A program made the position numbers and the translations under genes. 64,000 bases of DNA from Ignavibacteria bacterium (GTDB lineage: Bacteria > Elusimicrobiota > Endomicrobiia > PHAN01): positions 52,266-116,265 of the forward strand of contig JBGFRZ010000082.1 in the NCBI GenBank assembly GCA_041694835.1, read 5' to 3'. Below the pieces are notes generated by a model. The model made no database searches. It saw only the letters and a program-made list of their open reading frames with translations, and was not told the DNA's origin. Shown here one piece after another: positions 1,530 to 59,746 of the stretch; positions within the stretch are counted from its first letter, which is position 1, and each line of letters opens with the position of its first letter.

Positions 1530-4500
1530 TTATCTCGCCACCACGACTGTGCCGTTTTTTATTTTATCTCCGACTTTCAACTGATAGATGTAAACTCCCG
1601 TCGGAAGCGCTCCGCCCGATTGTTCTTTGCCATTCCAAACCACCCATAAATCGCTCTTTTTCTCCATCTCTGCCACTTTATAGCCGCTCAAATCAAAAAT
1701 CTCACCCGTGACACTTTCGGAGAAAGGATTTTCGAAAGTTACATTAAACTCATCGTTTATCCCATCGCCGTTGGGTGTGAAAACTTTCGGCCATGCGTTT
1801 AAAATTTTAAACTCCACCGCTCTTTGAAGAGAGCGAACCCTGAACTCCCCCGAGTATCTCGCATCTGCAATTAAATATGCCCCCAAATATCTCCCGCCAA
1901 GATTGACCCACTCCACTCCGTTAAACCAGAAGACAGCATAACTGGCGACTTCTGAAGGTGTCTTTGAAACTGCGGGCGACGAAGCAGTGAGGTTTTCAAG
2001 TTGAAATTTAAGAGTCAGAGGTTTTTTGAATCCAGTTTTTATCAATGCCCCTTCCCTATCCATTATTTCAACCATATACGAGAGTTTCGTCTTCTGGTCG
2101 TCGGGTGGGTTTTCTTTCTTTGTAATTTTAACGGAATAATCCGGTCTTAAAATTTCGGGTTCAGCAACAATTTGGAATTTGCCGTTTTCCGAATGATGAA
2201 TGTTTTGATTTGGTTCGCCTGCCACCAATACTGCCGATGGCTCGCCAAGGACTCCAAGTGTATTTATTGCTCTAACCATATAATAGATATTAACGTCAGA
2301 GACCAAAGCGAGTGTCAATGTGCTAGAAGATGCGGGGACAAATGCCACATGGTTAGAAGTAAACAAGTCGTCAAATCTATGGGCCACGTAAACCCTGAAG
2401 CCTGCGAGGTTTCCTGGAGAGGAACCATCTGTATTTTTAATGGGCGCAGTCCACGAAAGGACTATATCTTTTGTATTTGGGATATCAAACTTAAAGTTCG
2501 TTGGAGGCAGGGGTCTTGCTGAAGGGTTTGTATAAAAACTCCAGTCAGTTGTTGGCGTAGAGCGACTCGTTTTATCTACTGCATAAACCCGCCAGTAATA
2601 GGTGCTGTCGACCAAGAGGGTCTTATCGAGGGGGACTTGATACGACAAAGAAGCAATATTTGAAACAACTTTTCTTGAAGAAAAATCGGGCGATGTCGAA
2701 TGCCATAACTCATAAACCACAAAGTCTTCAGGGTCTGGGTCAAAAGAAGATGACCACGAGAAATTAGGCATAAGCGTTTCTATAATGGCCCCGTTGGCTG
2801 GGGAAAGCAGAGAAAACGCCGAAGGATTTTCTTCAATTGAATTTACCTTGAAACTTAAAACACTTGACCATCTCTGATTGCCCCATATATCGCAAGCAAC
2901 TGCCCTCCACCAATAAGTTCCGTTCTCTTTAAGTTCCAGGGTTATATATGAAGTGGTTGTAATTCCGACTGAAGACACAAAGACATTGAAATTTTCATAA
3001 GACGAATAATGGACATCATACCAGAATGTATCCGATTCGGGGTCTGAACTTGGTGACCATATTAAAGTTGGCGTTCTAGTCGAAATTATCCCTGATGGAC
3101 TAACAGGAACAAAAGGGTTTGGTGGCAGATTGACTGCAATAAAACTTCGCGATAGTGTATCTGTTGAACCCGTAAGTGTTGAATGCGCCGTAACATACCA
3201 GTAATATGTCGTGTTGTTGGACAGGTCACTTTGAAATGTATATGAGGTAATATATATCGGAGAAATCTGAGTTTTAATGGCAAAAAGCGAATTCGTGGAA
3301 TAAGTCAGAGTGTAATAATACACATAATCATAAGGGTCAGGGTCTGTTGTTTCCTGCCACAAAAGAGTGGGCTTGAGATAACTATAAAAAGAGCCATCCA
3401 GTGGCGAAAGCAGAGAAAAAGCTTTTGGATTTTCTGAAGTTGCATCAACTATAAAAAACCAGGTTGAGGAATGCGTCATGGCATTAAAGGAATCAATAGC
3501 AATAACATACCACCAATATGTAGTGTTTTCATTTAGCGATGTAGTGACCGAAAAAGGTGGGGAACTAATTCCGACTGAAGAGACAAAAATAGAGAAATTT
3601 GAGACGGAAGAATAAAAGATGGAGTAGGTGACGGTGTCCCCATCCGGATCGATTGCACTTTGCCAACTTAAAGACAGCGTCTGGGTTCTAATTATTCCCG
3701 AAGATGCGAGCAAATTGAAACTGCCCGGCGGAAAATTTACCGCTTTTACCGTAAAACTTGAAATTTCCGATTGCGTCGTCAGGTTATCCGGAGACGACCT
3801 TGCGACAACTCTCCACCAATACACCGCATCTTCCTGTAAATCTATCAATTGATAGTAGGTGGTGAGTATATCGAAAATGACTGGCGGGGCTGGAGTGGCT
3901 GTGGTTGAAGAGTAAGAAATTCCGTAATATACAGTATTGCCGGGGTCTAAATCAATAGCGATGCTCCATCGAAGTGTCGGTGATGATGTAAAAATCATTG
4001 TGCCGCCCGTGGGCCAGAGAAGTGAAAATGGCTGAGGCGGTTCATTCACAGTATTTAATCTAAAACTGCCGGTTGACGACGAAACGGTTTCGCGGCCCGT
4101 CGTGTCTCTTGCATGAACCTTCCAGAAATACCTGGCGTTTTCAGTTAAATTCCACCACGGCGACCAGGATAACTGATTAATGCCCGACACTCTGGTAGAA
4201 ACATTTGATTCAAAACTGATAGATGTAGAAATATAAACATTATAAACAACAAAATCTGCAGGGTCAGGGTCGGAAGAAGCGTTCCACCAAAGCGTCGGCT
4301 GAAGGGTACCGGTTTCTATGGTGTCATTTATCGGCTGAATAAGCGAAAAAGCCGTCGGCGATTCGCTCGTCGCATTTACAACAAACTGAGGGGTGCCGGT
4401 TACTCCCAATGAAAGTAGTCCTTCTGAATCCCTCGCATAGACACGCCAGTAGTATGTCGTGTTTTCGTTTAGCGCGGGGGTTGTCCAATTTGTCTGGGTT

Positions 4501-5168
4501 ATATTCTCCACAACGCTTTTTGGCGAAAAATTGCTTGCGGTTGAATACCAAAGGATGTAACTCGTTATACTGTCGCCGTAGATATTGTCTGTGCCGACAG
4601 GAAATCCACCGGCATTTGTCACATCGCCCCATGCCAGAAAGACCAATGAAGAAAAAACAACTGTTGTCGGGGTTCCTGTGTAGTTGTAGCCACTTACATT
4701 CCCAGGTGAGTTGTTCTGAGTCGCCGACTGGGGCTCAGGACTTGAAGTGTCAAGCAGCGACCAGTTGATGTTGTCCGTCGAAGATTTTATCGCAAAAAAA
4801 TATGTTATATTATTTACAAGAGATGAAACGACTCTCATCTCCGAGTTGCTGGAAGAAGTTGAAGTCGAAAATTTTATCCTGTAGGGGTAAGAAATCGATG
4901 TGGAGTTGTTTGTCCAGTCGGCTTCTGCGACTATTACCCGGTAACTCGAAACTCTTACCTCGTACCATTGAGGCGCTCCTTCCGGCCCACCTGGAGCTGT
5001 CCATTGAAGGGTTATGTGTCTGAAGCCGCTTGATCTTATTGAGAGATCGGTGACCTGATTTGGAACAGCGTTCAGGGTCGTTAATCCAAATAAAAAAAGT
5101 ATCGTCGGCCAAAAAAAACGAACGGGGCGAAACTTATCGATATCCGACAGTTTTGTCCGATGTTTCAT
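1530..5168 (-). CDS. large secreted surface protein (1212 aa): signal peptide, >=8 Fn3/Ig-like ~100-aa repeats, C-terminal T9SS type-B sorting domain (gliding-motility-associated CTD)
   Basis: Recurring repeat motifs PTLxWxxxxDPDxDxxxYxxxxSTxxxF appear throughout. The last ~85 aa, FTPNGDGINDEFNVTF...WNGK...GVYIYQLKVGDKIKNGTVVVAR, match the TIGR04131-type FxPNGDGxND CTD. The N-terminus has a hydrophobic signal-like segment. Confidence 0.6.
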   Translation of the reverse strand: MKHRTKLSDIDKFRPVRFFWPTILFLFGLTTLNAVPNQVTDLSIRSSGFRHITLQWTAPGGPEGAPQWYEVRVSSYRVIVAEADWTNNSTSISYPYRIKFSTSTSSSNSEMRVVSSLVNNITYFFAIKSSTDNINWSLLDTSSPEPQSATQNNSPGNVSGYNYTGTPTTVVFSSLVFLAWGDVTNAGGFPVGTDNIYGDSITSYILWYSTASNFSPKSVVENITQTNWTTPALNENTTYYWRVYARDSEGLLSLGVTGTPQFVVNATSESPTAFSLIQPINDTIETGTLQPTLWWNASSDPDPADFVVYNVYISTSISFESNVSTRVSGINQLSWSPWWNLTENARYFWKVHARDTTGRETVSSSTGSFRLNTVNEPPQPFSLLWPTGGTMIFTSSPTLRWSIAIDLDPGNTVYYGISYSSTTATPAPPVIFDILTTYYQLIDLQEDAVYWWRVVARSSPDNLTTQSEISSFTVKAVNFPPGSFNLLASSGIIRTQTLSLSWQSAIDPDGDTVTYSIFYSSVSNFSIFVSSVGISSPPFSVTTSLNENTTYWWYVIAIDSFNAMTHSSTWFFIVDATSENPKAFSLLSPLDGSFYSYLKPTLLWQETTDPDPYDYVYYYTLTYSTNSLFAIKTQISPIYITSYTFQSDLSNNTTYYWYVTAHSTLTGSTDTLSRSFIAVNLPPNPFVPVSPSGIISTRTPTLIWSPSSDPESDTFWYDVHYSSYENFNVFVSSVGITTTSYITLELKENGTYWWRAVACDIWGNQRWSSVLSFKVNSIEENPSAFSLLSPANGAIIETLMPNFSWSSSFDPDPEDFVVYELWHSTSPDFSSRKVVSNIASLSYQVPLDKTLLVDSTYYWRVYAVDKTSRSTPTTDWSFYTNPSARPLPPTNFKFDIPNTKDIVLSWTAPIKNTDGSSPGNLAGFRVYVAHRFDDLFTSNHVAFVPASSSTLTLALVSDVNIYYMVRAINTLGVLGEPSAVLVAGEPNQNIHHSENGKFQIVAEPEILRPDYSVKITKKENPPDDQKTKLSYMVEIMDREGALIKTGFKKPLTLKFQLENLTASSPAVSKTPSEVASYAVFWFNGVEWVNLGGRYLGAYLIADARYSGEFRVRSLQRAVEFKILNAWPKVFTPNGDGINDEFNVTFENPFSESVTGEIFDLSGYKVAEMEKKSDLWVVWNGKEQSGGALPTGVYIYQLKVGDKIKNGTVVVAR

Positions 5169-5716
5169 ATCTTTATATGTGTGTAATTAAGCCATCTTAT
5201 GATTTTTGAGAATACGCTCTTTTTCTCATTCCTCACAATCTTGAGTGATGTGAGTTTAAGGTTTAATCTTCTTATCTCGTCCTCATACTGCTTGAGAGTA
5301 TTTTTATGGCCGCTTATTGCGACCGATTGAGTATCGATAATATCTTCTTTTTTGTGCAGCACAAGCAAGAAATCTTTTCGCCAGTTTGCGAATTCTTTCG
5401 CCTGAACGGAAATCTTCGCCAACTCGTTTTTCAGAGTTTCTATCTCGTCGCGAAGTTTTTCGTTTTCTTCCCTTATGCTGTTTTTCTCATCCTCAAGAAG
5501 TTGCATTTTTTGATTGCCATCCTCCGCCATCCGAGATAAAATCTCATTCTTTTTGTTTAAATCAGATCTCAGTCTTGTGATTTCGCTCATATACAGATTG
5601 TTTTTCTCTCTGAACAAAGATGATTCTGGCATTTCACCACGACAACCGAATTCATCCTCGAGGCGCTCTATCTTTTTAAGAAGCTCTGAAACTTTAGTTG
5701 CTCTTTGGCTTGCCAT
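5165..5716 (-). CDS. coiled-coil protein (183 aa), E/K/L-rich heptads
   Basis: Track ORF. It overlaps the downstream gene by 4 bp (ATGA) and the upstream gene by ~23 bp, suggesting translational coupling within the operon. Confidence 0.4.
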   Translation of the reverse strand: MASQRATKVSELLKKIERLEDEFGCRGEMPESSLFREKNNLYMSEITRLRSDLNKKNEILSRMAEDGNQKMQLLEDEKNSIREENEKLRDEIETLKNELAKISVQAKEFANWRKDFLLVLHKKEDIIDTQSVAISGHKNTLKQYEDEIRRLNLKLTSLKIVRNEKKSVFSKIIRWLNYTHIKI

Positions 5717-8700
5717 CGTTTCTCCTTATCTTGATTATGGGTTCGTTCAGGTTTTCCCAGAACTTCTTAAACGACGATGCCTTCTTTCCTTCTGAAAACT
5801 CTCCCTCGCCCTCTTTATCGACAAATTTCCTAATCGCCTTCTTGAGTTCATTTATTTCCTCGTCCTTAATTGAGATTTCAATCTCACGGGCTTTGTATTT
5901 TTTTGTTATTTCATCTATAATTTCTTTCAGCTCAAATACATCCGAGGTTGCGATTTTGGTCGCTGAATTTTTCAGATTTTCATAAGCGTCCGATATCTCT
6001 CTCTTCTGAGATTCCATCTCCTCAATTTTTCCGCGATACTCGCTATTTAAAAGCGATATATTTTTCTCGAGGTTCTCCGCTCTCGCTTTTAGTACCGCTC
6101 TTTCCTCTTCTTTCGCCTTTAACTCGGAATCTTTCAAAGACAGTTCTTCCTGTGCGGTCTTTATTGAGTGCTCCATTTCGGCTCTTATTTCACTTAACTC
6201 TGAATTCAGGGCGGATTTCATCTGCGATTTTTCTTTTAAAAGGGTTTCAATCTGATTTCTGTATTTCTCCTCCATCTCCCTTTGAATTTCCAATTCCTTC
6301 CGCCTGTAGTCGAGATGAAGCCTCTCGATTTCTCCCTCTTTCGAAATGATATCGGCTTTAAGTCTGTCTTTTTCATCGTACCACTTTGTGAGCATCTGCT
6401 CATAATTTTTTTTAGACTCTTCGACCTCTTTCCTAAGACGTTCGAACTCAAAGGCATTTTCCATCTCCACTTCCCTTCTCACTTCAAGCTCCATCTGCTT
6501 CCATTCGGCATTCATATTTCTTATCTGGTTTTCTTTTAGAACAATATCCTGTTTGATGTTGTTTGCTTCTTTTTGAGCCGATGAAATCTCCTCTCTGAGT
6601 TTAACGGTTTCTATCTGATAGTTCTTCTTCTCTAATTCAAGAGAAGTGATTTTTCTTTCAATCTCGCCTTTCTCAATCCTAGAATTATTCAGAATCTCCT
6701 GCTCTTTCATCAACTGCTCGGCGAGCTTTCTGTTTAACTCTTCCTTCTGTCTGGCGAATTCATTTTGGACTTCCCTGATTCTTGCGTCGGCATCTTTTTC
6801 TCTGAGTAAAATCGCGTGATTCAGATCGGACACCGCTTTTCTTGCATGTTCAAGCTCAAAACGAATGTGCTCCGCCTCTTTTGAGAGCGCATTACAGCGC
6901 GACTCTTCCTTTGAAAAACTCTCTATCAGACGATGAATTTCCCCGTTAAGCTCCGATATTTTGCTTTCATATCCGCCGATAGTTTTTGATTTTTCCCTCT
7001 CAAATTCTTTTGCAAGGTTTGCGACTTCTCTTTCCGCATCTCGCTGAATATTTACAACATCATTCCTGAGCGACGTGATTTTGGCCTCACTTTCGCTCGT
7101 CAACCTTGATATAGTCTCCTGATAATTCTTTTCAATTTCCTTTATCCTGACTTCGGCCTCCCTCTCTTTTAGCTCGATAGCGTGATTGCTCTCCGCTATC
7201 TTATGACTTGCGTTATCGAGCTCAAAAGTTATCGATGCGATTTTCTGCGAGTATGAATCGTTTTTAGATGATAACTCGACTATATGACTTCTAGAGTCGG
7301 TCAGATCTTTCTCCATGATTTTTTTGTCCTGTTCCAACCGCAAACTCCTCATTTCAAACTCTTTCATTCGCGCCGCGTACTGTTGCATCTGATTTTCATA
7401 TAAAGAGTCACTTCTCTGTGCGTCCTGTCTCAGGATAGAAATTTTCTGCTCATACTCCGCTTCTTTCTGTTCAAGCCTCTGCAACCATTGGGCTTCGGCG
7501 ATTCCGAGTTGAGCTTCCTTTGAGCTAAGTTTTGAGTCGTATTCGGCCGAAAGGGTTCTCAATTTTTCTTCGTAATGCCTTTTAATGTTTTCGAGTTCGG
7601 TTTCCTTCAAACGGACGGCGCTATTAAAATCTCTTTCGTGATCGGCGAAATATACCTTCAGAGATTTTATCTCCTCTTCCTTCTTTTGTATCTCAAAACC
7701 AGATTCCTGGATTTTTTTGTTAAGCTGTTCCTTGTAAAATAATATCTCCCTGAGAAGTTTGTCCTGTTCTGTTTTAGTCTTCCCCTGGAAAAGCGCAAAC
7801 TGCGTCTTCAGGAGAAAATACTCCTTCTCTTTCGCTTCGGCACATTTGACGAGTTCGTTTTTCTCGGTTCTCATCTTTTCAATAAGATGGACGAGCTTCT
7901 CGCCCTTTTCTTTCTGCTCCCTTAATTGAACCGAAGACATTGCAATCTGCGCCTTTATCGCAAGAAACTCTCTATCTCTTTCTTCAAGTTGTTTCAGGAG
8001 AATATTTTTTTCTTCCTGATTTTTTGCGACAGATTCCTTCAAGTCCCTCAAAGCGGCGTCTCTGTCGGATTCCATCCTTGAAATCCTGTTTTCAAAGTCG
8101 TCTTTTTGTTCAAGCAGATTTTTCTCGAATGCAAGCTTCAGTTTCGAGAGCTCTTCTTCTTTATTTCTCAGAGATGTGGACCATCCAAGTTTTTCTTCGT
8201 GCCATTTTCTCTCGAGATCTTTTATCTTCAGGGAAAACTGTTCTTCAATCTCTGTCTCCTGGAAGTCCCTCTGCTGCATCTGTGTCTTTAACGTCTGAAC
8301 CCATGTTTCTCTCTCTTGAGAGAGTCTTTCCTCAAGTTCTTTTATCTTCGATTCGGCTTTCGCTTTCGCTTCCTCTATTTCCTGCTCTCTTTTTTCCCGC
8401 CTGAGGCGTTCTTGAATGTCTTTTATAGATTCCTCGACTTTGGAGGCCATCGCTTCTTCTTCCTTAGACTTCATCATCTGTAAGAGAAGTTTTTCCCTTT
8501 CCTGCTGAAGTTGATTCTGAAGTTCTATTATCTGCTGTTGAAGTTTGGTGGCGGACGCGTCGGAGGCGGGGGTGTCCAAGATGGGCAGATGCTGTGCGGG
8601 CGGCTTCAGAGGCAGCCCGGTCCTTTTGGGGAGTACGGGCGAGCCCGAAGATGGTTTCGGGGGCAGCGGTAGATTTGGTTTTCCTCCTGCGTGTTGACCT

Positions 8701-15422: not shown

Positions 15423-17057
15423 TTATCTAAGTTGGTTCAGGAACTGCGGAACCACTCTGTTTGTTGGATCTATTTCGAGCACCCGCATCCAGACCTCTTT
15501 TGCTTTTTCCGGCTGATCCATCATAAAGAAAGCGCTTCCCATAATTTCGTAAGCTGTCACATGGTTCGGTTCAAGATTCAGCACTTCCTGGGCTTTAATA
15601 AGGGCTTTGTCATATTTGCCGTCTATTATGGCTTGTCTTGCGTCGAAGATCTTCTGATCTATTATAGTAAATCCTGCGATTGTTTCCTTGAATGCTTCCG
15701 TAGGCGGGATGCCCATTTCTTTTTCAATCCTGTTCAACAAAGCAAGTAGCTTCATGTTCTCGGGTTTTTTGTAATAAGCATATCTGAAAGAGTTTATGGC
15801 GCCCGTGTCGTCGCCTTCTATATATGCTACAATCCCTTTTCTTGTCGCTACGGCATCTTCAGTATCTCCTACCACAGTGTCTATGTGACCTATTATTACC
15901 TGTAGTTTTTTGGACATATTCTGTGCATCTTTATTGGCCGGGTCTATATCAAGAAGTTTTTCAAGTCGATTGTGGGAAAGAAGCATGTCTCCTTTTCTGT
16001 AGGATTCTATAGCTTCTTTCATAAGACGCACCACTATAGCCGCTCTGTTAGCGCTTACCGATTCCCCTATTTTCCACGAACCGGATATTCTATGTGAAAG
16101 TCCGAGCTCATGCAAAGCAAACGCATAATCAAGCCCGTAATCTTTATATTTGAAACCAAAACCAGCGGTTGTCTCTCTTATTCTACCTTCGCCCTCGAAT
16201 CCGAGACGCATGGCAAGATAATTCATAAGCCAGTATTCTGTCCCTATGTGCCAGCCGAGATTTGCGTTAAGCGATTTTTCAATATCAAACGCCAGTAAAA
16301 ACTTTTTTTTCATAAACGGATGGGCCGCGCCGACTCTGAATATCATAGGAAGTTTGTCTTCCGTATCGCCAAAGCTCGTAGAAATTATGTTCCTGACACC
16401 GAAAGCAATTTTTATATCGGGCAACGTGTCATTTACTCCTTCAAGGAGCAGCGCAAGATCGAATGTTAGGGCTCCGCTTATAGAATCGGCCAGAGCATGG
16501 TTCATGTACTTCCCAGAAAGACCTATGGAGAGATTTTCTCTTATTCTTCTGCCGTATGCTGCCATTAAAGCCAGACGGGAATCTTCAAATGTGCCTAAAT
16601 TTTCAATCTTAACTATGTCCTGTGTAGTTGGGTCTATGTTTATCGCTATTTTTTCAAAACCGCCCGAGTGGAGACGGACGATGTTTGCTCCGAAAACTCC
16701 CAACTTTGCGGTTGGATGCACATACGACAGAAAGTTATAGTTGGTATCGGCAAAAAGCGTGGCATGGAGAGCCATAACTTCTTTCCTGTCAAGCTGGGTC
16801 AGAGCTGCCGGATTCCAGTAAGTAGCGGAGGCATCGTCGGAAACCGCGAAAAACGCTTTTCCCATACCAAGTGATTTAGCGCCAGCACCCCATGAAAGGA
16901 ACTGCCCAGGCTGGCCGCCGGTGGCAGCGGCAAAGACAGAGGATAGCGGCGAGAGACAAGAGACGAGAGAACAAATAAAAACAAAAGCCATCCCTGACAA
17001 AGTTTTTGCGACTTTGTTCGCTAGTTTTGTCGAGAGTTTTGTTTTTGAATTTTTCAT
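15423..17057 (-). CDS. FadL/OmpP1/PorV-like outer-membrane beta-barrel with C-terminal TPR domain (544 aa)
   Basis: A signal peptide is followed by GAKSLGMGKAFFAVSDDASATYWNPAAL, the FadL-family N-terminal signature. The body is beta-strand-rich. The C-terminal ~200 aa are TPR repeats. Confidence 0.55.
   Translation of the reverse strand: MKNSKTKLSTKLANKVAKTLSGMAFVFICSLVSCLSPLSSVFAAATGGQPGQFLSWGAGAKSLGMGKAFFAVSDDASATYWNPAALTQLDRKEVMALHATLFADTNYNFLSYVHPTAKLGVFGANIVRLHSGGFEKIAINIDPTTQDIVKIENLGTFEDSRLALMAAYGRRIRENLSIGLSGKYMNHALADSISGALTFDLALLLEGVNDTLPDIKIAFGVRNIISTSFGDTEDKLPMIFRVGAAHPFMKKKFLLAFDIEKSLNANLGWHIGTEYWLMNYLAMRLGFEGEGRIRETTAGFGFKYKDYGLDYAFALHELGLSHRISGSWKIGESVSANRAAIVVRLMKEAIESYRKGDMLLSHNRLEKLLDIDPANKDAQNMSKKLQVIIGHIDTVVGDTEDAVATRKGIVAYIEGDDTGAINSFRYAYYKKPENMKLLALLNRIEKEMGIPPTEAFKETIAGFTIIDQKIFDARQAIIDGKYDKALIKAQEVLNLEPNHVTAYEIMGSAFFMMDQPEKAKEVWMRVLEIDPTNRVVPQFLNQLR
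16911..16991. repeat. pyrimidine/purine-skewed low-complexity tract (ggcagcggcaaagacagaggatagcggcgagagacaagagacgagagaacaaa) encoding the signal-peptide h-region MAFVFICSLVSCLSPLSSVFAAATGG
   Basis: Direct reading of the DNA and its minus-strand translation. Confidence 0.55.
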
Positions 17058-17462: not shown

Positions 17463-17971
17463 AAATTGCCTTCGGTAACCCGGCCGCCATAATCTCGCAT
17501 TTTGCTTGATGTTAGGCCCGTATCCTGACCTATAGTCAGAATGACCCGATTCAACATCGGGATCGGCTTTGCGTCCTCCGGTTTCCCGGAGTTTGCCATT
17601 TATCGGACAATCCTTACGTTTCCATCTCCGCCACGGCGGAAGGGGGCTATCAAAATAAAAATGCTACCGAACTTCCGCCCGGTAGCATAAAGATAGGGGG
17701 TCCTAAAACTTGTTGCAAACCACTACAACCGCAACCGCTAACAAATTAAACTTACTACACCTTCTCTCGGTAGCCCGGCCAGCTCCCCCGACATTATGTC
17801 GGGGGCATCGCTCCGATTTCCCGAAACGATTTTGATAGCCCCCTATCTTTAGCTCCGCGGCTTTGCGTCCTCCGGTTTCCCGAAGTTTGCCTTTATCGCA
17901 ATATATATATAATAAAATTTATGACATTTGTCAAGGTTTTTTTAACAGCCGAAATTCTGCCAAAAATTGCA
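17463..17971. other. structured 510-bp non-coding leader/element: two 41-bp direct repeats (17565-17605, 17859-17899) flanking ~250 bp with perfect hairpins and a 15-bp inverted repeat
   Basis: The direct repeat ggctttgcgtcctccggtttcccg(g/a)agtttgcc(a)tttatcg occurs twice. gggggctatcaaaat at 17641 pairs with attttgatagccccc at 17826. The hairpin cccccgacattatgtcggggg has a 9-bp stem and gctaccgaacttccgcccggtagc a 7-bp stem. No ORF >=60 aa lies in this region. Confidence 0.5.
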
Positions 17972-22469: not shown

Positions 22470-23474
22470 CTAAACAGATAGTAATTTTAATTGATGAATA
22501 TGTTGATACCGATAATGATTACGTTTAATCAAAGAATGCTTTTTTTCAATGTCAACTTCTTTCAATCTTCGAATAGCAATTTTTACATATTCACTATTAG
22601 AATCAATTCCAATGTATTTCTTTTCTAATATCTTGGCAGCGACTGTCGTGGTAGCGCTCCCAACAAAAGGGTCTAATATAATGGCATTTTTAGAAAAAGC
22701 CGATAACTGAATCAAATATTCACAGATCGCTAATGGTTTCACTGTTTTATGTAGATTATAATCTCCTTTTTCTTTCTTTGATGGTTTGGGCAACAGGAAC
22801 ACTTTATCAATCTCAGTGTTTATGTTTTCAGTGGTAATTACATTTGCTGGATACATATTTTTACCCAATCTAATATTCGTATTTACCAAACCAACTTTGT
22901 ATTTCAACATGTTGTTTAGATAAGTAGTGTCTGTCGGTTTTTGCGCCACAGCAATAGGTTCAAAACAAGATTTAATCTGCGGGGTCTTCCATCCGTGCAA
23001 TCTTTCTCTAATAATATTTTTTTGGTCATTGCCAGCTCCCATCTTATCAATAAAATGATTAAGCCCCATTGCCTTTGCCTGATTTTGAGTATAGAGCCAC
23101 ATGAAAACATCTCTGATCTCAAATCCCGCATCGTCCAATGCTGATGCCATTCTATGATATAGGCGAGGACTAGAAAATGAAAAGAAAAATCCACCGGGTT
23201 TCAATAATCTGATAATTTCCTTTGATATTTTTAAATACCAACTATAAAATCTGACGCCTTGTTCTCTCTCAAATTTCATTCCAGCTGGCAATGACTTTAT
23301 GATGTAGTGATTGCGTGTATTAGTTACTACTTCATGATTCCATTGGTTGTCCAGTTTATCTAAAAAATACGGGGGGTCAGTTATAACAAGATCTATTGAA
23401 TTGCTTTCAATTTGCGGAAGCACGTTTAATGCATTATCACATATAATTTTATTCAAAAATTTTTTGTTTTTCAT
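22470..23474 (-). CDS. DNA methyltransferase, N6-adenine/N4-cytosine (PF01555-type, DPPY motif)
   Basis: LVITDPPYF is motif IV. ILDPFVGSATTTVAAKILEKKYIGIDSNSEYVKIAIRRL is the C-terminal AdoMet motif I. The gene is visibly AT-richer than its flanks. Confidence 0.8.
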   Translation of the reverse strand: MKNKKFLNKIICDNALNVLPQIESNSIDLVITDPPYFLDKLDNQWNHEVVTNTRNHYIIKSLPAGMKFEREQGVRFYSWYLKISKEIIRLLKPGGFFFSFSSPRLYHRMASALDDAGFEIRDVFMWLYTQNQAKAMGLNHFIDKMGAGNDQKNIIRERLHGWKTPQIKSCFEPIAVAQKPTDTTYLNNMLKYKVGLVNTNIRLGKNMYPANVITTENINTEIDKVFLLPKPSKKEKGDYNLHKTVKPLAICEYLIQLSAFSKNAIILDPFVGSATTTVAAKILEKKYIGIDSNSEYVKIAIRRLKEVDIEKKHSLIKRNHYRYQHIHQLKLLSV

Positions 23475-23477
23475 ACT

Positions 23478-23972
23478 CTATTTTATTTCGGAAGGTTTTT
23501 TACCGTCAAACTTATCATATAGAATTTTGTAAATTTTTATTTTTATCTCTCTATCGCAAGTTCTTACCACATTTGAATCGGCAACTTTTATTACTCTGCC
23601 TTTTTCGTCATAAACCCATCTATTCCTATCTCCACGATTACACTTTTGACATTGAGGAATAATATTATCCGCAACTAATGGTTTACGAGGATTCATATGA
23701 GCTTTTTGTAATTTTGTTTTTGTGGCAGGCCAATGCAAATGAGGCAGTCCTTCTTCGGAACCACATGTGGCGCATCTAAAATGATATTTTTCTTTCATCT
23801 TACTCCAATCGTCCGTATCACTAATTCTATGTCCTTTTTTAAAAGATGGGTAGGGCTTTTCTAATGTGTATAATTGATACTCCCCCCTTTTAAGATTCAA
23901 GACGATATTATCTCTGCCCCCTGCCACAATCCACCAACCTTTTTGTGCTCCTAAATGCCTGGCCTGTTGCAC
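23478..23972 (-). CDS. HNH endonuclease (probable restriction-endonuclease partner; 5' part appears frameshifted, with a protein-like reading continuing to ~24190 in two frames)
   Basis: FRCATCGSEEG...NIIPQCQKCNRGDRNR is an HNH/Zn-finger motif. The track ORF begins at a GTG. Upstream, the same frame continues protein-like (..LVYLAQNYPYTNKVTKEELTRFIREFDPDVND) up to a TAA. A 45-codon ATG ORF (MDKNEIYRIYHTIIKECHAKHLEKYGVGLPRLHDASGNFKRMRLF) sits in another frame. Confidence 0.45.
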   Translation of the reverse strand: MQQARHLGAQKGWWIVAGGRDNIVLNLKRGEYQLYTLEKPYPSFKKGHRISDTDDWSKMKEKYHFRCATCGSEEGLPHLHWPATKTKLQKAHMNPRKPLVADNIIPQCQKCNRGDRNRWVYDEKGRVIKVADSNVVRTCDREIKIKIYKILYDKFDGKKPSEIK

Positions 23973-29027: not shown

Positions 29028-29816
29028 CTATTTCAAAAAATCACAGATAGACCCAACTAAACCAGAAAAATTGCCAATACCGTCAAGATGGTCGTAATTA
29101 TTCAAAACAAACAATCCCCCTCCAAGTTTAATATCATCAATAATCAGTTGCACTTCTGTCTGTTTTACTGTTTTTCTGGTTTTTCCACTTTCATTATATT
29201 TATCAAAATCCCTATATCTTGCCCAATCAAGAGTAATAAAACCATATTTGATTTGTAAATTTTCTTTTGTAAAAATGACCGTATATTTATCTTTACCATA
29301 TTTTGCATTTAATACATCTTGATCCATCAAAAATAAATGAGATAAAAATTGTCCGATTCTTTCTCTTGTTGTACCTTTTGCCGATAATATAAAAGCCTTT
29401 TTTATTTTTTCAAAATTATCTTTAACAACTACAATATCACTATCAAATTTCTTGATGTGACTTGTATTTTTTCTCACAAGACACAGAGAATTGGTAACAT
29501 AAGAAATAATATCGTTATAAGTTTTGTGGTTTGTTGCCAAATAATTTAATTTATTTTCCTTGAAGTAAGCATTGAGTAAATATACTATACTTTCTTCTAC
29601 CAATTTTCCAAGAACCGAATCTTTGCTTGATTTTTCTTGCCTTGCTTCGTCCTCTGTTTTCTTCTTATCAAATTGCGAAGCATATTTTTTAGCATATTTA
29701 TTTGCATCTGAAAAAATGAAGTATTTATTCAAGTTTACCCCAACATTTAAACTACCTTTGTCTTTTATCACTTTGCCTAATTTTCCTTCTAAATAACTTT
29801 TGTGAACTAAATCCAT
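29028..29816 (-). CDS. hypothetical protein, candidate type II restriction endonuclease (partner of adjacent methyltransferase)
   Basis: Immediately downstream (18-bp gap) of the MTase gene. It is AT-rich with no recognisable family motif. The call rests on gene context only. Confidence 0.35.
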   Translation of the reverse strand: MDLVHKSYLEGKLGKVIKDKGSLNVGVNLNKYFIFSDANKYAKKYASQFDKKKTEDEARQEKSSKDSVLGKLVEESIVYLLNAYFKENKLNYLATNHKTYNDIISYVTNSLCLVRKNTSHIKKFDSDIVVVKDNFEKIKKAFILSAKGTTRERIGQFLSHLFLMDQDVLNAKYGKDKYTVIFTKENLQIKYGFITLDWARYRDFDKYNESGKTRKTVKQTEVQLIIDDIKLGGGLFVLNNYDHLDGIGNFSGLVGSICDFLK

Positions 29817-29833
29817 AATAAACCCTCTTTCCT

Positions 29834-30706
29834 TTATAAAAGTTTAGGTTGTCTTGCAACAATCTTTATATTTTTTTCTGCTATTTCACAATATTCTCGG
29901 CAATTATCTATATAAATATATTTTCTTTCAGTTTTTACACTAACAACTGGAACTGTTCCAGTTCCCCCAAAAGGGTCTAAAACTATATTATCAATGTATG
30001 AATAAAATTTAACTAAACGATATATAAGTTTTTCTGGAAAGGGTGCCGGATGTCCTTTTGGTTGAGTTTGAGGTTTTATGTCCCAAAATGAATTTGAAAA
30101 TTCTATAAATTCCTCTTTTGTAATATCTATCTTTTTAGGTTCTCCCTCTAATTTTTTTTCTTCTTTACTAAACACTAATACGAATTCATACGGTTGAACA
30201 ACATAAGGATTTGATGGAGATTTCCAAGAACCCCAAGCAGTTCTTTTCGAAATTGCTTGTTTATACCACAATATATCACCTCTCATAATATAGCCAATTT
30301 TTCTCATTTGATTAACGACATCTACAAAAAGTGGTTGATATTGTCCGTCAGCCGTCACACTTGGTACATTTATGCAAATTCTACCTCCTTTAATTAAAAC
30401 ACGATAGCATTCAAACCAAACTTTTTCAAGCCAATCTAGATATTCCTTGTAAGGCATATTATCATAATGGTTCTTGTATGGTTTTCCTACATTATATGGT
30501 GGGGATGTAATTATAAGATGAATAAAATTTTCCGGCATTAATTTCATAACTTCTACACAATCACCACAAATAACTTGATTTATAAACCTATTTTCCGATT
30601 GAACAAGAATTTCTTTTTGAGTAATTGTGTGATATGGTATTACCGTTTCTTCCAACAAATTATTCTTTGTTACTTTCTTTTTTTTATATTCCATTGATTT
30701 ATCCAA
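29834..30706 (-). CDS. DNA methyltransferase, N6-adenine/N4-cytosine (PF01555-type, SPPY motif)
   Basis: ITSPPYNVGKPY is motif IV. VLDPFGGTGTVPVVSVKTERKYIYIDNCREYCEIAEKNI is motif I. The gene is AT-rich. Confidence 0.8.
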   Translation of the reverse strand: MDKSMEYKKKKVTKNNLLEETVIPYHTITQKEILVQSENRFINQVICGDCVEVMKLMPENFIHLIITSPPYNVGKPYKNHYDNMPYKEYLDWLEKVWFECYRVLIKGGRICINVPSVTADGQYQPLFVDVVNQMRKIGYIMRGDILWYKQAISKRTAWGSWKSPSNPYVVQPYEFVLVFSKEEKKLEGEPKKIDITKEEFIEFSNSFWDIKPQTQPKGHPAPFPEKLIYRLVKFYSYIDNIVLDPFGGTGTVPVVSVKTERKYIYIDNCREYCEIAEKNIKIVARQPKLL

Positions 30707-49835: not shown

Positions 49836-51236
49836 ATGGAAAACATTCAAGACATCTGGAAAAAGATAATAGAGGGGCTTAAAGGAAGGTTAACATCAGA
49901 AGTTGTGGAGCTCTGGCTGGGCCCGGTTAAACTCCTAAAAAAAGAGGGTGCCGGCGAGTTATCTTTTGTTATAAAGGTGCCGAACAAATTCTTCAAAAAT
50001 TGGATTGAAGAAAATCGCATAGTTGATGAGATAAAAAGGGCAATATCCGAAAAATACTCGCTCCACGACGATTCGTCCATATCCATAGAATACCTGGAAC
50101 TTCAGGATTTGTCGGCCTCAAAATCGGAAGGATTTTCCGCCGGCTTCAAACTTCAGAAAAGCGAGACGCAAGTAACAACCCGCCAGGAACAGGCCGTGGT
50201 TTCTTCGACGATTTTTAATCCCAAACTCACATTTTCAAGGTTCATAGTGGGAAAACAAAATCAATTCGCATATTCCGGGGCATGGGCGGTGGCTAATGAT
50301 CCCGGAAAACAGTACAATCCTCTTTTCATATGGGGAGGAGTAGGGCTTGGTAAAACCCATCTTTTGCATGCCATAGGCAATCGGATAAAAGAAAAATCCC
50401 CGTCTTTAAAAACGCTCTATATCCAAACCGAAACCTTCATAAATGACTTTATAGATTCTCTCAGGTTCGATAAACCCGCTTCCTTCAGAAACAAATATCG
50501 CTCGGTTGAATGCCTGCTTATCGACGACATACAATTTCTTGCTGGAAAAACAAGCTGTCAGGAAGAGTTCTTCTACACATTCAACGCCATATACGACTTC
50601 AAAAAACAGATAGTCCTCACTTCAGACAAACCCCCCAAAGACATTGAAGGTCTTGAGGAAAGACTAATATCCCGTTTTGTTTGGGGGCTCGTTGTTCCCA
50701 TGGACCCGCCGGATCTTGAAACAAGGATAGCTATCTTGCGCTCAAAAGCCGAAGAAGAAAGGGTGTATGTTTCTGAGGACATAATACTCTATCTCGCCAA
50801 CGAGATAAAAACGAACATAAGGGTCCTCGAGGGGGCTCTAACAAAAGTTGTCGCCACCGCCGCCCTGCTTGATACCCCGTTAACTCTTGATGTCGCCAAA
50901 AAGATGCTCAGCGACATAATAACAAAAGAAAATGTTGGCGTTCCAATAAACATAGAAAGAATACAGAAAATCGTGGCGGAACATTACAACATAAAGGTTT
51001 CGGATTTAAAGTCGAAGAAAAGAACGGAGATGCTCGCCATGCCCCGACAGATAGCGATGTATCTGTCGAGAGAGATGACGAGCGAATCTCACACCTCTAT
51101 AGGTGACGCCTTCGGAGGGAAAGATCACAGTACGGTCATCCACGCAATAAACAAAATAAAATCGAAGGTTGTGGCAGATCCTTTTTTCAGCGCTGAAATA
51201 AACAAAATAGCTAAAAAAATAACTTTCAGCGAGTGA
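49836..51236 (+). CDS. dnaA: chromosomal replication initiator DnaA
   Basis: NPLFIWGGVGLGKTHLLHAIGN is the Walker A. LLIDDIQFL, the sensor motifs and a C-terminal DNA-binding domain are present. Confidence 0.95.
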   Translation: MENIQDIWKKIIEGLKGRLTSEVVELWLGPVKLLKKEGAGELSFVIKVPNKFFKNWIEENRIVDEIKRAISEKYSLHDDSSISIEYLELQDLSASKSEGFSAGFKLQKSETQVTTRQEQAVVSSTIFNPKLTFSRFIVGKQNQFAYSGAWAVANDPGKQYNPLFIWGGVGLGKTHLLHAIGNRIKEKSPSLKTLYIQTETFINDFIDSLRFDKPASFRNKYRSVECLLIDDIQFLAGKTSCQEEFFYTFNAIYDFKKQIVLTSDKPPKDIEGLEERLISRFVWGLVVPMDPPDLETRIAILRSKAEEERVYVSEDIILYLANEIKTNIRVLEGALTKVVATAALLDTPLTLDVAKKMLSDIITKENVGVPINIERIQKIVAEHYNIKVSDLKSKKRTEMLAMPRQIAMYLSREMTSESHTSIGDAFGGKDHSTVIHAINKIKSKVVADPFFSAEINKIAKKITFSE

Positions 51237-51484: not shown

Positions 51485-52636
51485 ATGTTTATCAAAGCGC
51501 CGAAGGAAAAATTTGTATCTATGCTAAATGTAATACAAAATGCCGTATCCCAAAAGACGACGATGCAGATACTGAACAACTTCTACATAGGCATAAAAGG
51601 AAAGAAGGTCCATCTTTCCGCCACGGACCTCGAGATATATGTTGAAGGAGAATTCGACATTGACGATGGGACGAAATCCGAAAAAGAGAAAATAGAGCTT
51701 AAGGATGGCGAGTGCGCTATTCCAGCCAAGAGGTTCATAGATATGCTCAAAGAACAAGAGTCCGGAAAGATGCTTTCGGTTGAGATTGGAGAGTCAAACA
51801 GGGTGGATGTGAAATGCGGAAGGTCGCACTTTAATCTGCCCGGGTTTTCGGCGAAAGACTATCCCGAACCCCTTGAGTTTCCGAAACAGAAAGTCATCGC
51901 GGTTTCGTCAGTTCTTATGAAAGACATAATAGAAAAAACACTCTTCGCTGTATCGGCCGAGGACATAAGATATGCCCTCAACGGCGTTTATTTTATAGTT
52001 GAAAAAGATACTCTGAAGCTGGTTTCAACCGACTCTCGCCGCCTTGCTTTTGTAAGCGGGGATATAGACGGCTCCAAATTCACCCACAGCGCTATAGTTC
52101 CGCAGAAAGCCCTAAACGAACTTCTTCGTCTTATAGACTTACTGCAGCCGACGTCGATTAAAATAGGATTTTCGGACAATCAGGTTTCTTTCGAGTTGAA
52201 CGAGGTTACTTTGAGCTCCAGAATTATCGACGGCGAGTTTCCGAACTACGAAAGGGTGATTCCAAAAACATCCGCCATATCTGCCAAGATAAAGGCTAAA
52301 GATCTTCTTTCAGGTCTCAGGCAGTTGCAGTTTCTGTCACAGGACAAATCCAGTGCGGTGAAGTTTTCGTTCAAAAAAGGAGTCCTCACGCTTGTGGCGT
52401 CTGCACAGGGCATAGGGCAGGGGGAGGTGGAGCTCGACATAGATTACAGCGACAAGCCGCTCGATATAATCTTCAATATGAATTATCTTTTCGATTTTTT
52501 AAAAGTTGTAAAAGAAAGCGAACTCAAGATTGAGCTGAATTCCGGGGTAAACCCGGCCATATTTTCACTGGCTTCGGAAATGATGCCGAACGTGAAGAAA
52601 TATCTTTACATCGTCATGCCGATAAGAACGGAATAA
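51485..52636 (+). CDS. dnaN: DNA polymerase III beta sliding clamp
   Basis: LKLVSTDSRRLAF and the three-domain length (383 aa). An RBS aaggagg lies upstream. Confidence 0.9.
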   Translation: MFIKAPKEKFVSMLNVIQNAVSQKTTMQILNNFYIGIKGKKVHLSATDLEIYVEGEFDIDDGTKSEKEKIELKDGECAIPAKRFIDMLKEQESGKMLSVEIGESNRVDVKCGRSHFNLPGFSAKDYPEPLEFPKQKVIAVSSVLMKDIIEKTLFAVSAEDIRYALNGVYFIVEKDTLKLVSTDSRRLAFVSGDIDGSKFTHSAIVPQKALNELLRLIDLLQPTSIKIGFSDNQVSFELNEVTLSSRIIDGEFPNYERVIPKTSAISAKIKAKDLLSGLRQLQFLSQDKSSAVKFSFKKGVLTLVASAQGIGQGEVELDIDYSDKPLDIIFNMNYLFDFLKVVKESELKIELNSGVNPAIFSLASEMMPNVKKYLYIVMPIRTE

Positions 52637-52641
52637 TAAGC

Positions 52642-52920
52642 GTGGTAACGAAGGCGAAGGATATAGTCGAGCTTGTATTCAAGAAATTTGGTTTTTCTTC
52701 GAGAACTCAGGATATTTTTGAAGCGTGGGCTAGCCTCGATAGAGCCATAACGCTTGATTCGGAGCTTTGTGAGGTTTGCCGCGGAGTTCTTTATGTTAAA
52801 GTGAGGTCTCCGATGGCATTTAATAGCTTGTACTACAACAAACGTAAGATAATACACTCGCTTAATGCGAGGCTCAAAGAAAAGGTTGTAAAAGATATAA
52901 AATTTGAAATGGCTCTTTAG
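52642..52920 (+). CDS. DUF721-family (DciA-like) small protein between dnaN and gyrB
   Basis: IFEAWASL....L..VCRGVLYVKVRSPMAFNSLYYNKRKIIHSLN fits the DUF721 pattern (W...G.L.V.V.S..W..EL......I...LN). No recF is present. Confidence 0.5.
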   Translation: MVTKAKDIVELVFKKFGFSSRTQDIFEAWASLDRAITLDSELCEVCRGVLYVKVRSPMAFNSLYYNKRKIIHSLNARLKEKVVKDIKFEMAL

Positions 52921-52969: not shown

Positions 52970-55450
<2,481 letters not shown>

Positions 55451-55467
55451 AATCGTAAAAAAGTAGA

Positions 55468-56484
55468 ATGAAAACAAAGGTAAAATGTAAACAAAGAGAG
55501 AACAAACAATCGTTTGTAAGAGAGAACGTAACCTCATCACTTTCTTATCGGATAACTATACCAAATTTTGAATATGGTGCTATTTGGGAAGACCCGATTA
55601 GCGGACATAAAATTGGCTGCCTTGATGTATCAAAAAAGGAAGATGTTGAAAGGCTGATGCAGGGCAAAAAAGCAATCTTAGCGGTTCAAGACCCGCCGTA
55701 TAATGTTGATATAAATGACGAGTTTGGAAACTTGCCTTTGGAAAAATACATTAACTGGAGCGAAAAGTGGGTTGATAATACAATAGATATTCTTGATAAA
55801 AATTCCTCTCTTTATATTTGGCTTGGTGCAGATATTAGAAATGCCTTGCAACCACTACCAGATTTTATGATTATGATGAGAAACAAACCCGTTCAAATTA
55901 GAAACTTTATTACAATGAGAAATCAACGGGGGTACGGAACTCAGAAAAACTGGATGGCAATACGGCAAGAATTGCTTTACTACATAAAAGGCGAGCCGAT
56001 TTTTAATGTTCAAGCCGAATATACAGACATACTAAAAAAAACAAAGGGATACTATAAAGAAGTAAACGGAAAAGTTACGGAAAATTTTGAGAGAAGCAAA
56101 TCCTTAACTATCAGAGCAGGAAATGTTTGGCACGATATACAACAGGTTTTCTATTTAATGCATGAGAATGTAGAGGGTTGTTTTGCTCAAAAACCACTTA
56201 AATCAGTAAAAAGAATTATTGAAGCAAGTAGTAATAAGGGCGACATTGTCATAGATTTTTTCGGCCATTCCGGTTCTACTTTGTTGCAAACGGAATTAAG
56301 TAAAAGAAAATGTTATACGATGGATATAAATCCCGCATATTGCAAAATAATGGCCGCCCGCCTGCTCCATTATCGCCGAACAGGCGAAACTGGCTGGGGC
56401 AGGACAAAAATTTTAAAGGATGGGAAAATTTTAGTGCAGGACGAACAATTATTAGGCACACCAACCTTATTAGATTTAATTTAA
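55468..56484 (+). CDS. DNA methyltransferase, N6-adenine/N4-cytosine (PF01555-type, DPPY motif), inserted between gyrB and gyrA
   Basis: AVQDPPYNVDI is motif IV. IDFFGHSGSTLLQTELSKRKCYTMDINPAYCKIMAARL is motif I. The gene is AT-rich. Confidence 0.8.
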   Translation: MKTKVKCKQRENKQSFVRENVTSSLSYRITIPNFEYGAIWEDPISGHKIGCLDVSKKEDVERLMQGKKAILAVQDPPYNVDINDEFGNLPLEKYINWSEKWVDNTIDILDKNSSLYIWLGADIRNALQPLPDFMIMMRNKPVQIRNFITMRNQRGYGTQKNWMAIRQELLYYIKGEPIFNVQAEYTDILKKTKGYYKEVNGKVTENFERSKSLTIRAGNVWHDIQQVFYLMHENVEGCFAQKPLKSVKRIIEASSNKGDIVIDFFGHSGSTLLQTELSKRKCYTMDINPAYCKIMAARLLHYRRTGETGWGRTKILKDGKILVQDEQLLGTPTLLDLI

Positions 56485-56489
56485 ACAAT

Positions 56490-57221
56490 ATGGACAAAAG
56501 GAATTTAGACAAAAAACTGGAAGAATGGATTAAAGAATTACCACAGGAAAGTAAGAAATCTTTACTGGCTCGTTTAAGCGGTTTGAAATCTATTTATCCG
56601 TTCAATGAATACGAATATCGTTTGATGTATCTTTTGGATAAGAAAATTATTACTTTCCGAGAGTATGAGGATTTGAGAAATTCCTATGTTAATGCCAATC
56701 CTTATCTGAATCTCTATAGTATTTCGCCGCGAGTGTTTGGTGAAATTTGGGCCCAACAGCATTTAGTTGATATTGATGCAAGATTTAAGAAACCGTCAAA
56801 AAAAATTGATAAAAAGTATTCCGGCGATTATGACCTTTATCTTGAAAACGAAAAGAAAATAATAAAAGTTGAAGTTAAGGCATGTCGGGCAATCAATACA
56901 AAACTTCGTGGCGGACTGGAAACCAAAGCGTTAAGCTTTGAATCAGACGAGCCGTATTGGATGAATTTTCAGCAGATTAAATTGGACATAGCGGATGTTT
57001 TCGTTTTTGTCGGCGTTTGGGTAGATAAAATTCTTTATTGGGTTTTAACGAATAAAGAGGTTAAGAAACACCCAACCAGAAGTCATCAACACAGAGGCGG
57101 TATTGAATACCAAATTGGCATTACAGAAAAGAATATAAAGGAATTTAAGAAATTTTTAGTTAAACCAAATCGATTAGTTGATAATATAAAATCAAACTTG
57201 CTAAAGGATGGAATTACTTAA
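56490..57221 (+). CDS. candidate type II restriction endonuclease with PD-(D/E)xK-like motif
   Basis: [19 protein letters not shown] has the D...E-V-K spacing. It lies immediately downstream of the MTase and is AT-rich. The start was chosen at MDKRNLDKK, because the track ORF overlaps the MTase by 175 bp. Confidence 0.4.
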
Positions 57222-57223
57222 TT

Positions 57224-59746
57224 ATGACGGAACAGAATGAAAAAAATTTAGAAAAAAATCAAAAACAAGAAATCTTACCGACGGGCATAACCCCCAGAAA
57301 CATTGAAGACGAGATGAAGTCGTCATTCATTGATTATTCGATGAGCGTTATAATGAGCCGCGCTCTTCCCGATATTCGCGACGGTTTGAAACCCGTTCAT
57401 CGAAGAATTTTATTCACAATGAAAGAAATGGGTCTTCGACATAACGTTGCATATAAAAAGTCAGCCCGCGTCGTCGGTGATTGCCTTGGAAAGTATCATC
57501 CGCACGGCGACACCGCCGTCTATGATTCAATGGTCAGAATGGCTCAGGATTTTTCGCTCAGATACCCGCTTGTCGACGGACAAGGCAATTTCGGCTCAGT
57601 CGACGGCGATAGCCCTGCCGCTATGAGATACACGGAAGTAAGAATGAAGACCATAGCCGACGAACTCTTGTCAGACCTTGACAAAGAAACGGTGGATTTT
57701 GTCCCGAACTACGACGGTTCACTTGAAGAGCCGTCCATACTTCCAGCAAAACTTCCCAATCTTTTAATCAACGGCTCGTCGGGCATTGCCGTCGGTATGG
57801 CAACGAACATACCGCCGCATAACCTGTCTGAGGTTATAGACGGAACGCTCGCCGTCATCGATGACCCTGAAATAACGGTTCAGGGGATTTCAAAAATCGT
57901 CAAAGGCCCAGATTTTCCGACGGCAGGAATAATTCAAGGAAAATCCGGAATAAAGAGTTATCTTGAAACCGGTCGCGGCTCCGTCAAGATGCGCGCCAAA
58001 GCCGAGCTCGAGGAGATGAAGGGCAACCGCGAGGCGATAATAATAAACGAGCTCCCCTACCAAGTGAACAAAGCGTCCCTGCTTGAAGCCATAGCCGACC
58101 TTGTAAAGGACAAAAAACTCGACGGTATATCAGATCTCAGAGATGAGTCCGACAGAAAAGGGATGAGGGTGGTCATAGAGCTCAAGCGCGACGCAAACGC
58201 TCAGATAGTTTTGAACCAACTGTTCAAGCACACCCAGATGGAGAGTTCGTTCGGCGTAATAATGCTTGCAATCGTCGACGGCAAACCGCGAATATTGAAC
58301 ATAAAACAACTCCTTGAAAACTATATCGAGCACAGAAAAGTAATCGTCATAAGGCGGACAAAATATGAATTAAAAAAAGCCGAGGCTCGCGCCCATATCC
58401 TTGAAGGATTGAAAATCGCTCTCGACCATCTCGACGCCGTCATAAAGACGATAAGAGAATCAAAGGATGTTGAGTCGGCTCGCGAACGTCTGATAGAAAA
58501 ATTCAAACTCACAAAAATTCAGGCGCAGGCGATACTGGAAATGAAACTCCAGCAATTGACAAATCTCGAAAGAAAGAAAATCGACGACGAATATCTTGAG
58601 TTGATAAAGTTGATTGATAAATTGAAATCAATTCTGGCAGATACCCGAAAGGTATTGAACGTCATCAGGACGGAACTGGAAGAACTGAAAGAAAAACACG
58701 GCGACGCCCGCCGCACAAGGATTGTTGCCCAGATGGTCGAACTCGACGAGGAAGATTTGATTCAGCATGAAGAAGTCGCGGTAACGCTTTCGCATACCGG
58801 CTACATTAAAAGGATACCACTCTCTACTTACAGAGCTCAGGGTCGCGGTGGTAGGGGCGTTACGGGAATGACAACGAAAGACGAGGACTTCGTCGAACAT
58901 CTCTTTACGACCGACACTCATGCGTATCTCTTGCTTTTCACGAATAAAGGACGATGTCACTGGCTCAGGGTCTATGAAATTCCCGAAGGAACTCGCGCGG
59001 CGAAAGGCAAGGCGGCGGTTAATTTTATTCAGATCAGCTCCAATGAAAAAATAACGGCGGCCATACCCATCAAGTCATTTGAGGAAGAAAAAGAATCGTA
59101 TCTTCTGATGGCGACAAAAACGGGAACGATAAAGAAGACACCCCTTTCCGAATATTCAAACCCTAGAAAAGGCGGAATAATAGCGCTCAATCTTGAAACC
59201 GGAGATGAACTCATAGATGTCAAGCATACCGACGGCGAATCCGAAGTGCTCATGGCCACCAGAGACGGCATAGCCATAAGATTCAAGGAGACGGATGTCA
59301 GACCGATCGGCCGCGCAGGAAAAGGCGTAAGAGGTATAAAACTTGAAAAAAACGACTCTGTCGTAGGCATGGAAGCCGTCAGAAAAGACGACATATTTCT
59401 TACCGCCACCGAGAACGGCTACGGAAAAAGAACAGAGGTCGGCAAATATCGTCTTCAATCGCGTAGCGGAAAAGGCGTCAAAAATATGAAAACGACCGAT
59501 AGAAACGGAAGAGTCGTAGGGATAAAGAAAGCGATCGATACAGACGACCTTATGCTTATGACTCAAAAAGGCGTGACTATACGGCTTGCGTGTCAGTCAG
59601 TTGGTATAATAGGAAGAAATGTGCAAGGCGTTCGACTTGTGCGTCTTGATGAAGGCGATAAACTTTCTGCCATAGCGACCGTCGTTAAAGAAGAAAACGG
59701 CGACTCGGCCGCTAACCCCGAGAAATCGGAGAAATCTCAGCAGTGA
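57224..59746 (+). CDS. gyrA: DNA gyrase subunit A
   Basis: AMRYTE carries the active-site Tyr region. The QRDR-like region and the C-terminal beta-pinwheel repeats are present. Confidence 0.95.

Follow-up and report, generated by a model that had tools for sequence, protein, structure and literature searches.

The region analysed here (the window) is a stretch of 64,000 nucleotides whose gyrA gene was found closest to that of an Elusimicrobia MAG (75% identity), followed by those of Endomicrobiales and Endomicrobiaceae MAGs, in a one-genome-per-species collection. Since the best gyrA matches all belong to Elusimicrobia, Endomicrobiales or Endomicrobiaceae MAGs, the window was assigned to an Elusimicrobiota genome. 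According to the ORF map and the Pfam matches, its genes from dnaA to gyrA form an array on one strand, with archease and then rtcB located downstream of gyrA. The features of this array are listed below, together with the evidence on which each was placed.

49836-51236, plus strand: dnaA (ORF calls)
51485-52636, plus strand: dnaN (ORF calls)
52642-52920, plus strand: small DciA-like gene (DciA family, PF05258), between dnaN and gyrB
52979-55450, plus strand: gyrB, the upstream flank (Pfam DNA_gyraseB, Toprim, GyrB_C)
55451-55467, plus strand: left junction, 17 nt from the gyrB stop to the methylase ATG (sequence read)
55468-56484, plus strand: beta-class DNA methyltransferase, 338 aa (PF01555)
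55468-55557, plus strand: variant 5' leader of 90 nt, methylase residues 1-30 (blastn; alignment to the copy L127)
55558-57196, plus strand: conserved cassette core (blastn boundaries)
55690-55701, plus strand: motif IV, DPPY, methylase residues 75-78 (motif positions)
56257-56277, plus strand: motif I, FxGxG (DFFGHSGS), methylase residues 264-270 (motif positions)
56490-57221, plus strand: predicted Type II restriction endonuclease, 243 aa (REase_II profile)
57222-57223, plus strand: right junction, 2 nt from the nuclease stop to the gyrA ATG (sequence read)
57224-59746, plus strand: gyrA, the downstream flank (Pfam DNA_topoisoIV, 2.6e-169)

A sequence-only reading of this DNA had proposed that a methyltransferase and a nuclease-like ORF are wedged between gyrB and gyrA next to the origin, and both ORF order and Pfam assignments agree with this layout. 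The site is indeed origin-proximal, with the replication origin about 6-12 kb away: dnaA-dnaN lies directly upstream, gene strand and AT skew switch near 43-44 kb, and the cumulative GC skew is lowest near 47 kb. The slot between dnaN and gyrB often holds recF or DUF721 genes; in the window it holds the DciA-like gene. Neither gyrase gene was damaged at the junctions, as the C-terminus of gyrB is conserved and ends in VKNLDI before its stop codon at 55448-55450, and relatives align to gyrA from residue 1. The methylase and the nuclease are separate genes, both on the plus strand and 5 nt apart, with the nuclease start (ATG at 56490) chosen from homologues of 238-239 aa, compared to a mechanical ORF call of 56310-57221.

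The first of the two genes scored E 1.2e-28 against PF01555 (101 bits, compared to a gathering cut-off of 26.7 bits) and 8e-29 against the PADLOC profile MTase_II (PDLC03299), and its DPPY motif lies where a PF01555 DPPY methyltransferase had been claimed. Motif IV precedes motif I (DPPY, then FxGxG), which is the order of the beta class. A DPPY motif is typical of N6-adenine methyltransferases, the motif alone being no proof of the base. The best sequence relatives in the PDB, M.MboIIA (2.4e-14) and M.RsrI (1e-10), are adenine methylases, and judging from this similarity the target base is probably N6-adenine. The CcrM and YhdJ families of NCBIfam were matched weakly, with 78.6 and 28.2 bits compared to equivalog cut-offs of 292 and 830, respectively.

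The second gene was identified as a restriction endonuclease based on its REase_II profile match, its D-x12-ExK motif, its fold and its synteny with the methylase. It matched PDLC03414 (REase_II) of PADLOC-DB over profile positions 38-239 of 244 with an E value of 6.4e-41, a profile that PADLOC labels as 'Type II restriction enzyme' only. The peptide from which a PD-(D/E)xK-like ORF had been proposed was found in the translation, and its D...ExK corresponds to D115, E128 and K130, encoded at 56832-56879. This motif (D115-x12-E128-x-K130, with V between E128 and K130) was invariant in an alignment of 99 sequences (A2) down to 42% identity; D115, E128, K130 and R133 were invariant or nearly so both there and in a second alignment that extends to sequences of 29% identity (A1), and MNFQQ (158-162) and QHRG (200-203) are further invariant motifs. 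An AlphaFold2 model built on A2 (mean pLDDT 82.9) has two domains. The one at the N-terminus is helical and about 95 residues long; the one at the C-terminus is predicted to adopt a PD-(D/E)xK fold, with an alpha/beta core and the D...(D/E)xK residues on adjacent beta strands, as in other members of that superfamily. The earlier expectation that the downstream ORF encodes a nuclease was thus upheld by profile, motif and fold, as well as by a methylase-first arrangement at about 75 loci (see below). No match to the nuclease was obtained in Pfam or NCBIfam, in the PDB with either the single sequence or a profile, or among plasmids and phages by tblastn, and two large protein searches returned solely entries named 'hypothetical protein'. 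An exhaustive search placed it in a family of 311 representative clusters at 50% identity.

Both genes differ sharply from their surroundings in composition. The GC content is 0.360 for the methylase and 0.335 for the nuclease, compared to 0.463 for gyrB and 0.467 for gyrA, with sharp edges, and GC3 is 0.33 and 0.32 compared to 0.55 and 0.51, which bears out the AT-richness reported earlier. A metagenome scan with the nuclease identified 80 loci with 69-94% identity, and wherever upstream DNA was present (about 75 of the 80) a homologue of the methylase, 73-94% identical, was found directly upstream and co-linear. At the nucleotide level, blastn recovered 71 full-length copies with 77-87% identity, extending from window position 55558 to about 57196. 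Named public homologues come from Liptonbacteria, Giovannonibacteria, Portnoybacteria, Nealsonbacteria and Paceibacterota, all of them Patescibacteria, and from Omnitrophota. None of the 80 metagenome loci carries the cassette between gyrB and gyrA, and one (L145) lies near dnaA/dnaN; in an Omnitrophota MAG (L001) the pair is flanked by dnaK on one side and a PCMT methyltransferase gene on the other, while other copies adjoin RNase J, ribosomal protein S15/PNPase or a second RM pair. The cassette is therefore foreign and mobile. Such a distribution fits the gene exchange that has been reported in groundwater for Patescibacteria, Omnitrophota and other groups (PMC12455944).

The leader of the window methylase differs from the common 'MPVVQNKK...' leader and has no nucleotide-level counterpart in most copies, but its homology to the L127 leader can be recognised, so that the inserted DNA covers essentially everything between the stop codon of gyrB and the start codon of gyrA. 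The idea that the 107 nt to the left of the core are a remnant of the ancestral gyrB-gyrA spacer was dropped because of this homologous leader. A search for terminal or direct repeats and for a target-site duplication gave short matches at chance level only, the best being the 10-nt ATATAAAATC at 55445 and 57184. No integrase or transposase gene flanks the cassette, its neighbours being gyrB and gyrA.

Many copies elsewhere carry a regulatory gene. A 72-aa XRE/HTH_3 controller-like gene was found directly upstream of the methylase in 22 of the 62 copies with enough upstream DNA, and slightly further off in about ten more; carriers include L163 (at 160-378), L089, L095, L100-L102, L104, L111, L113, L116, L117 and L160. 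An HTH gene directly upstream is the usual controller-protein layout of RM systems. No such gene was detected in the window by tblastn, and the 17-nt gap leaves no room for one; the Omnitrophota copy likewise lacks it. A terminator scan gave no terminator-like site on the plus strand between gyrB and gyrA, and a promoter scan of the locus returned as many matches as expected from shuffled sequence. Given the gaps of 17, 5 and 2 nt and the lack of consensus terminators, the cassette is most likely transcribed within the gyrB-gyrA operon, as far as can be judged from the arrangement of the genes.

Neither reading frame is interrupted, and all catalytic motifs are kept. Compared to the closest copies, dN/dS was 0.03-0.07 for both genes and dS about 0.7-1.3, and both genes look functional and appear to be under strong purifying selection. 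This selection, and not a very recent transfer, accounts for the high protein identity across phyla, and a dS of about 0.7-1.2 to the closest sampled copy implies that the actual donor is unsampled. Among the other copies, frameshifts affect the nuclease in L155, L157, L159, L160 and L161 and the methylase in L116, and L127 contains stop codons; such copies either are decaying or reflect errors of assembly.

The spacing between gyrB and gyrA was then compared across 71 species in which the two genes are co-linear, including 13 measurable Elusimicrobiota-like relatives. The gap was at most 207 bp in 54 of the 71 species (median about 40 bp) and at least 630 bp in the other 17. In the Elusimicrobiota-like relatives it measured 13-126 bp in nine and held other inserts in four, and the cassette was absent from all 13. 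The insert is thus no conserved core feature, a finding that would have refuted the sequence-only reading. The four other inserts comprised a low-GC insert with an HNH endonuclease and a YhcG/DUF1016 PDDEXK nuclease (L005, gap 4766-7801), three B12-radical-SAM paralogues (L007), PIN-TRAM plus IspD (L013) and small ORFs without assigned identity (L014). Within Ignavibacteria, one subclade carries an MgtE-like gene in the gap, and MNT-HepT toxin-antitoxin pairs lie directly upstream of gyrA in L023, L026, L027, L041 and L044 (just before position 8001 in L023, L026, L027 and L044). In L041 the gap (2395-7955) also contains another PF01555 methylase, distinct from that of the window, with a 220-aa ORF after it. 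The earlier description of the site as an unusual target therefore stands in that the gap is mostly empty, but not in the sense of a one-off, as other selfish or defence modules recur at the site where it is occupied. The gap may be a recurrent landing place, with a variable content of selfish modules in two phyla, with the reservation that several of these occupancies were probably inherited and are not independent, and that the counts cover the gyrB-gyrA junction only. As a separate observation from this survey, the gyrA match in the Elusimicrobiota MAG L022 (8001-11591) spans about 3.6 kb compared to about 2.5 kb, which suggests an intein or another in-frame insertion.

The window holds two further methylases of the same family, each with a partner gene, and the earlier count of three PF01555 methyltransferases within 64 kb was confirmed.

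22470-23474, minus strand: PF01555 methylase, DPPY (Pfam)
23478-23972, minus strand: partner ORF, 164 aa, weak PtuB/HNH-like match only (profile match)
29028-29816, minus strand: partner BsaWI-like nuclease, PF18643 (Pfam)
29834-30706, minus strand: PF01555 methylase, SPPY (Pfam)

Both additional pairs (22470-23972 and 29028-30706) are patches of low GC (0.28-0.37). The three methylases share 23-27% pairwise identity, which answers the question of duplication or independent acquisition raised earlier in favour of independent acquisition. Elsewhere on the minus strand, tandem c-di-GMP-I-type riboswitch aptamers (RF01051, RF03167) were found at 17471-17607 and 17765-17900, upstream of minus-strand genes starting near 17057.

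Site avoidance was evaluated as Markov observed/expected ratios of 4- and 6-bp palindromes and of 5-mers with a central N in the window, in 310 kb of flanks from cassette-bearing contigs, in 1.27 Mb of control loci and in the 71 cassette copies. GATC was strongly depleted in the window (68 observed compared to 257 expected, O/E 0.26) and absent from the window cassette; CTAG was also low in the window (O/E 0.31). GATC was set aside as a candidate recognition site of the cassette, as several cassette contigs, among them L110 (52/48) and L117 (34/42), are not depleted of it. No 6-mer was clearly avoided, and no consistent site-avoidance signal emerged across the four sequence sets. The depletion suggests GATC-directed restriction or repair pressure in the window genome; it was traced to none of the three RM pairs, and the signal may belong to another system.

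Overall, we consider it very likely that the pair is an intact orthodox Type II RM cassette in methylase-then-nuclease order that was acquired horizontally. As in systems of this class, the restriction and modification genes are adjacent and separate, the methylase has motifs I and IV, and the nuclease has its catalytic core. The alternative that survives best is domestication of the pair, or at least of its methylase, for an epigenetic or replication-linked role like that of Dam or CcrM, with the nuclease incidental or being lost; this would explain the place of the pair in the dnaA-dnaN-gyrBA origin operon. The embedded, origin-proximal position, the loss of the controller gene and the weak CcrM and YhdJ matches would suit such a role, as would the GATC depletion across the window, a sign that some GATC-directed activity shaped this genome. 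However, the nuclease is unbroken, retains every catalytic residue and is under purifying selection as strong as that on the methylase, the NCBIfam scores fall far under the equivalog cut-offs, many copies of the pair lie in unrelated settings that are not near an origin, and relatives manage without it, so that we regard domestication as improbable.

A mis-assembly, in which a cassette from co-occurring Patescibacteria or Omnitrophota was joined into an Elusimicrobiota contig, would be consistent with the sharp difference in composition from the flanks and with the closest cassette relatives, which come from groundwater-type samples and sit on contigs that belong to other phyla. We nevertheless hold it to be very improbable: the junctions are precise and preserve the native gyrB C-terminus and the native gyrA N-terminus with spacers of 17 and 2 nt, no repeat longer than the single 10-nt match is present at the junctions to mislead an assembler, and a double chimera that restores gyrB and gyrA in order is very unlikely. 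Just as improbable is an old pair inherited vertically as a core feature of the gyrBA operon in this lineage, since, even though a dS of about 1 to the nearest sampled copy means that the transfer need not be recent and the nearest genome compared has only 75% gyrA identity, the cassette is not ameliorated (GC3 of 0.32-0.33 compared to 0.51-0.55 in the flanks), is missing from every measurable relative, with an empty gap in nine of the 13, and is scattered across phyla in different contexts.

As a horizontally acquired Type II cassette, the pair resembles RsrI, MboII-M and PvuII-type systems in having two adjacent genes on the same strand, a beta-class methylase and a small PD-(D/E)xK nuclease (243 aa), and it is similar to C-regulated systems in that many of its copies are preceded by an HTH controller-like gene. 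It differs from the RsrI, MboII-M and PvuII-type pairs in that its nuclease family is covered by neither a Pfam nor an NCBIfam model and lacks both a solved structure and a public homologue with a name, and in that the window copy has no controller gene and lies inside an essential operon. Compared to small PD-(D/E)xK enzymes with solved structures (R.NhoI, the N-terminal domain of Eco15I and I-Ssp6803I), the nuclease is only 10-17% identical, which is no relationship at the sequence level, and it has an additional N-terminal helical domain of ~95 residues. In Endomicrobia, RM genes of foreign composition have been described between syntenic genes without repeats, transposases or integrases (Zheng et al. 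2016, PMC4760077). The present case is similar to these in phylum, in being Type II, in its foreign composition and in its bare insertion between otherwise syntenic genes. Unlike in that termite-gut endosymbiont, where most RM genes are pseudogenes, neither window gene is disrupted, and the insertion lies at the gyrB-gyrA junction ('gyr' occurs 0 times in that paper). A literature search on gyrB-gyrA insertions returned nothing specific.

Most likely, the cassette entered an Elusimicrobiota (Endomicrobiia-like) chromosome as bare DNA, at the short spacer between gyrB and gyrA. The methylase would mark one short recognition sequence on the host DNA and the nuclease would cut the same sequence if unmethylated, so that incoming phage or foreign DNA would be restricted. 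Loss of the pair would be penalised by post-segregational killing, and the expression of gyrA would now read through the cassette.

More tentatively, and with doubts that outweigh our confidence, addiction-type modules could be landing repeatedly, across phyla, at the junction immediately upstream of gyrA in dnaA-dnaN-gyrB-gyrA operons. If so, RM pairs, MNT-HepT pairs and HNH/YhcG nucleases would hitch-hike on an essential constitutive operon without a promoter or controller of their own, and they would be unusually hard to lose because imprecise deletions would be lethal. The window cassette, with its controller gene lost and its gaps of 17, 5 and 2 nt, would then be the most tightly integrated example.

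The cassette is an ordinary mobile defence module and leaves the current view of RM biology unchanged. It provides a well-bounded case of a Type II RM cassette that moves across very distant phyla (Patescibacteria, Omnitrophota and Elusimicrobiota) and into an essential operon, where hardly any intergenic DNA is left. That the 64 kb of the window hold at least three RM pairs, each acquired independently, bears on attempts at transforming such uncultured lineages or modelling gene flow in them, and a nuclease family of 311 clusters that is publicly annotated as 'hypothetical' gains a putative function, catalytic residues and a fold.
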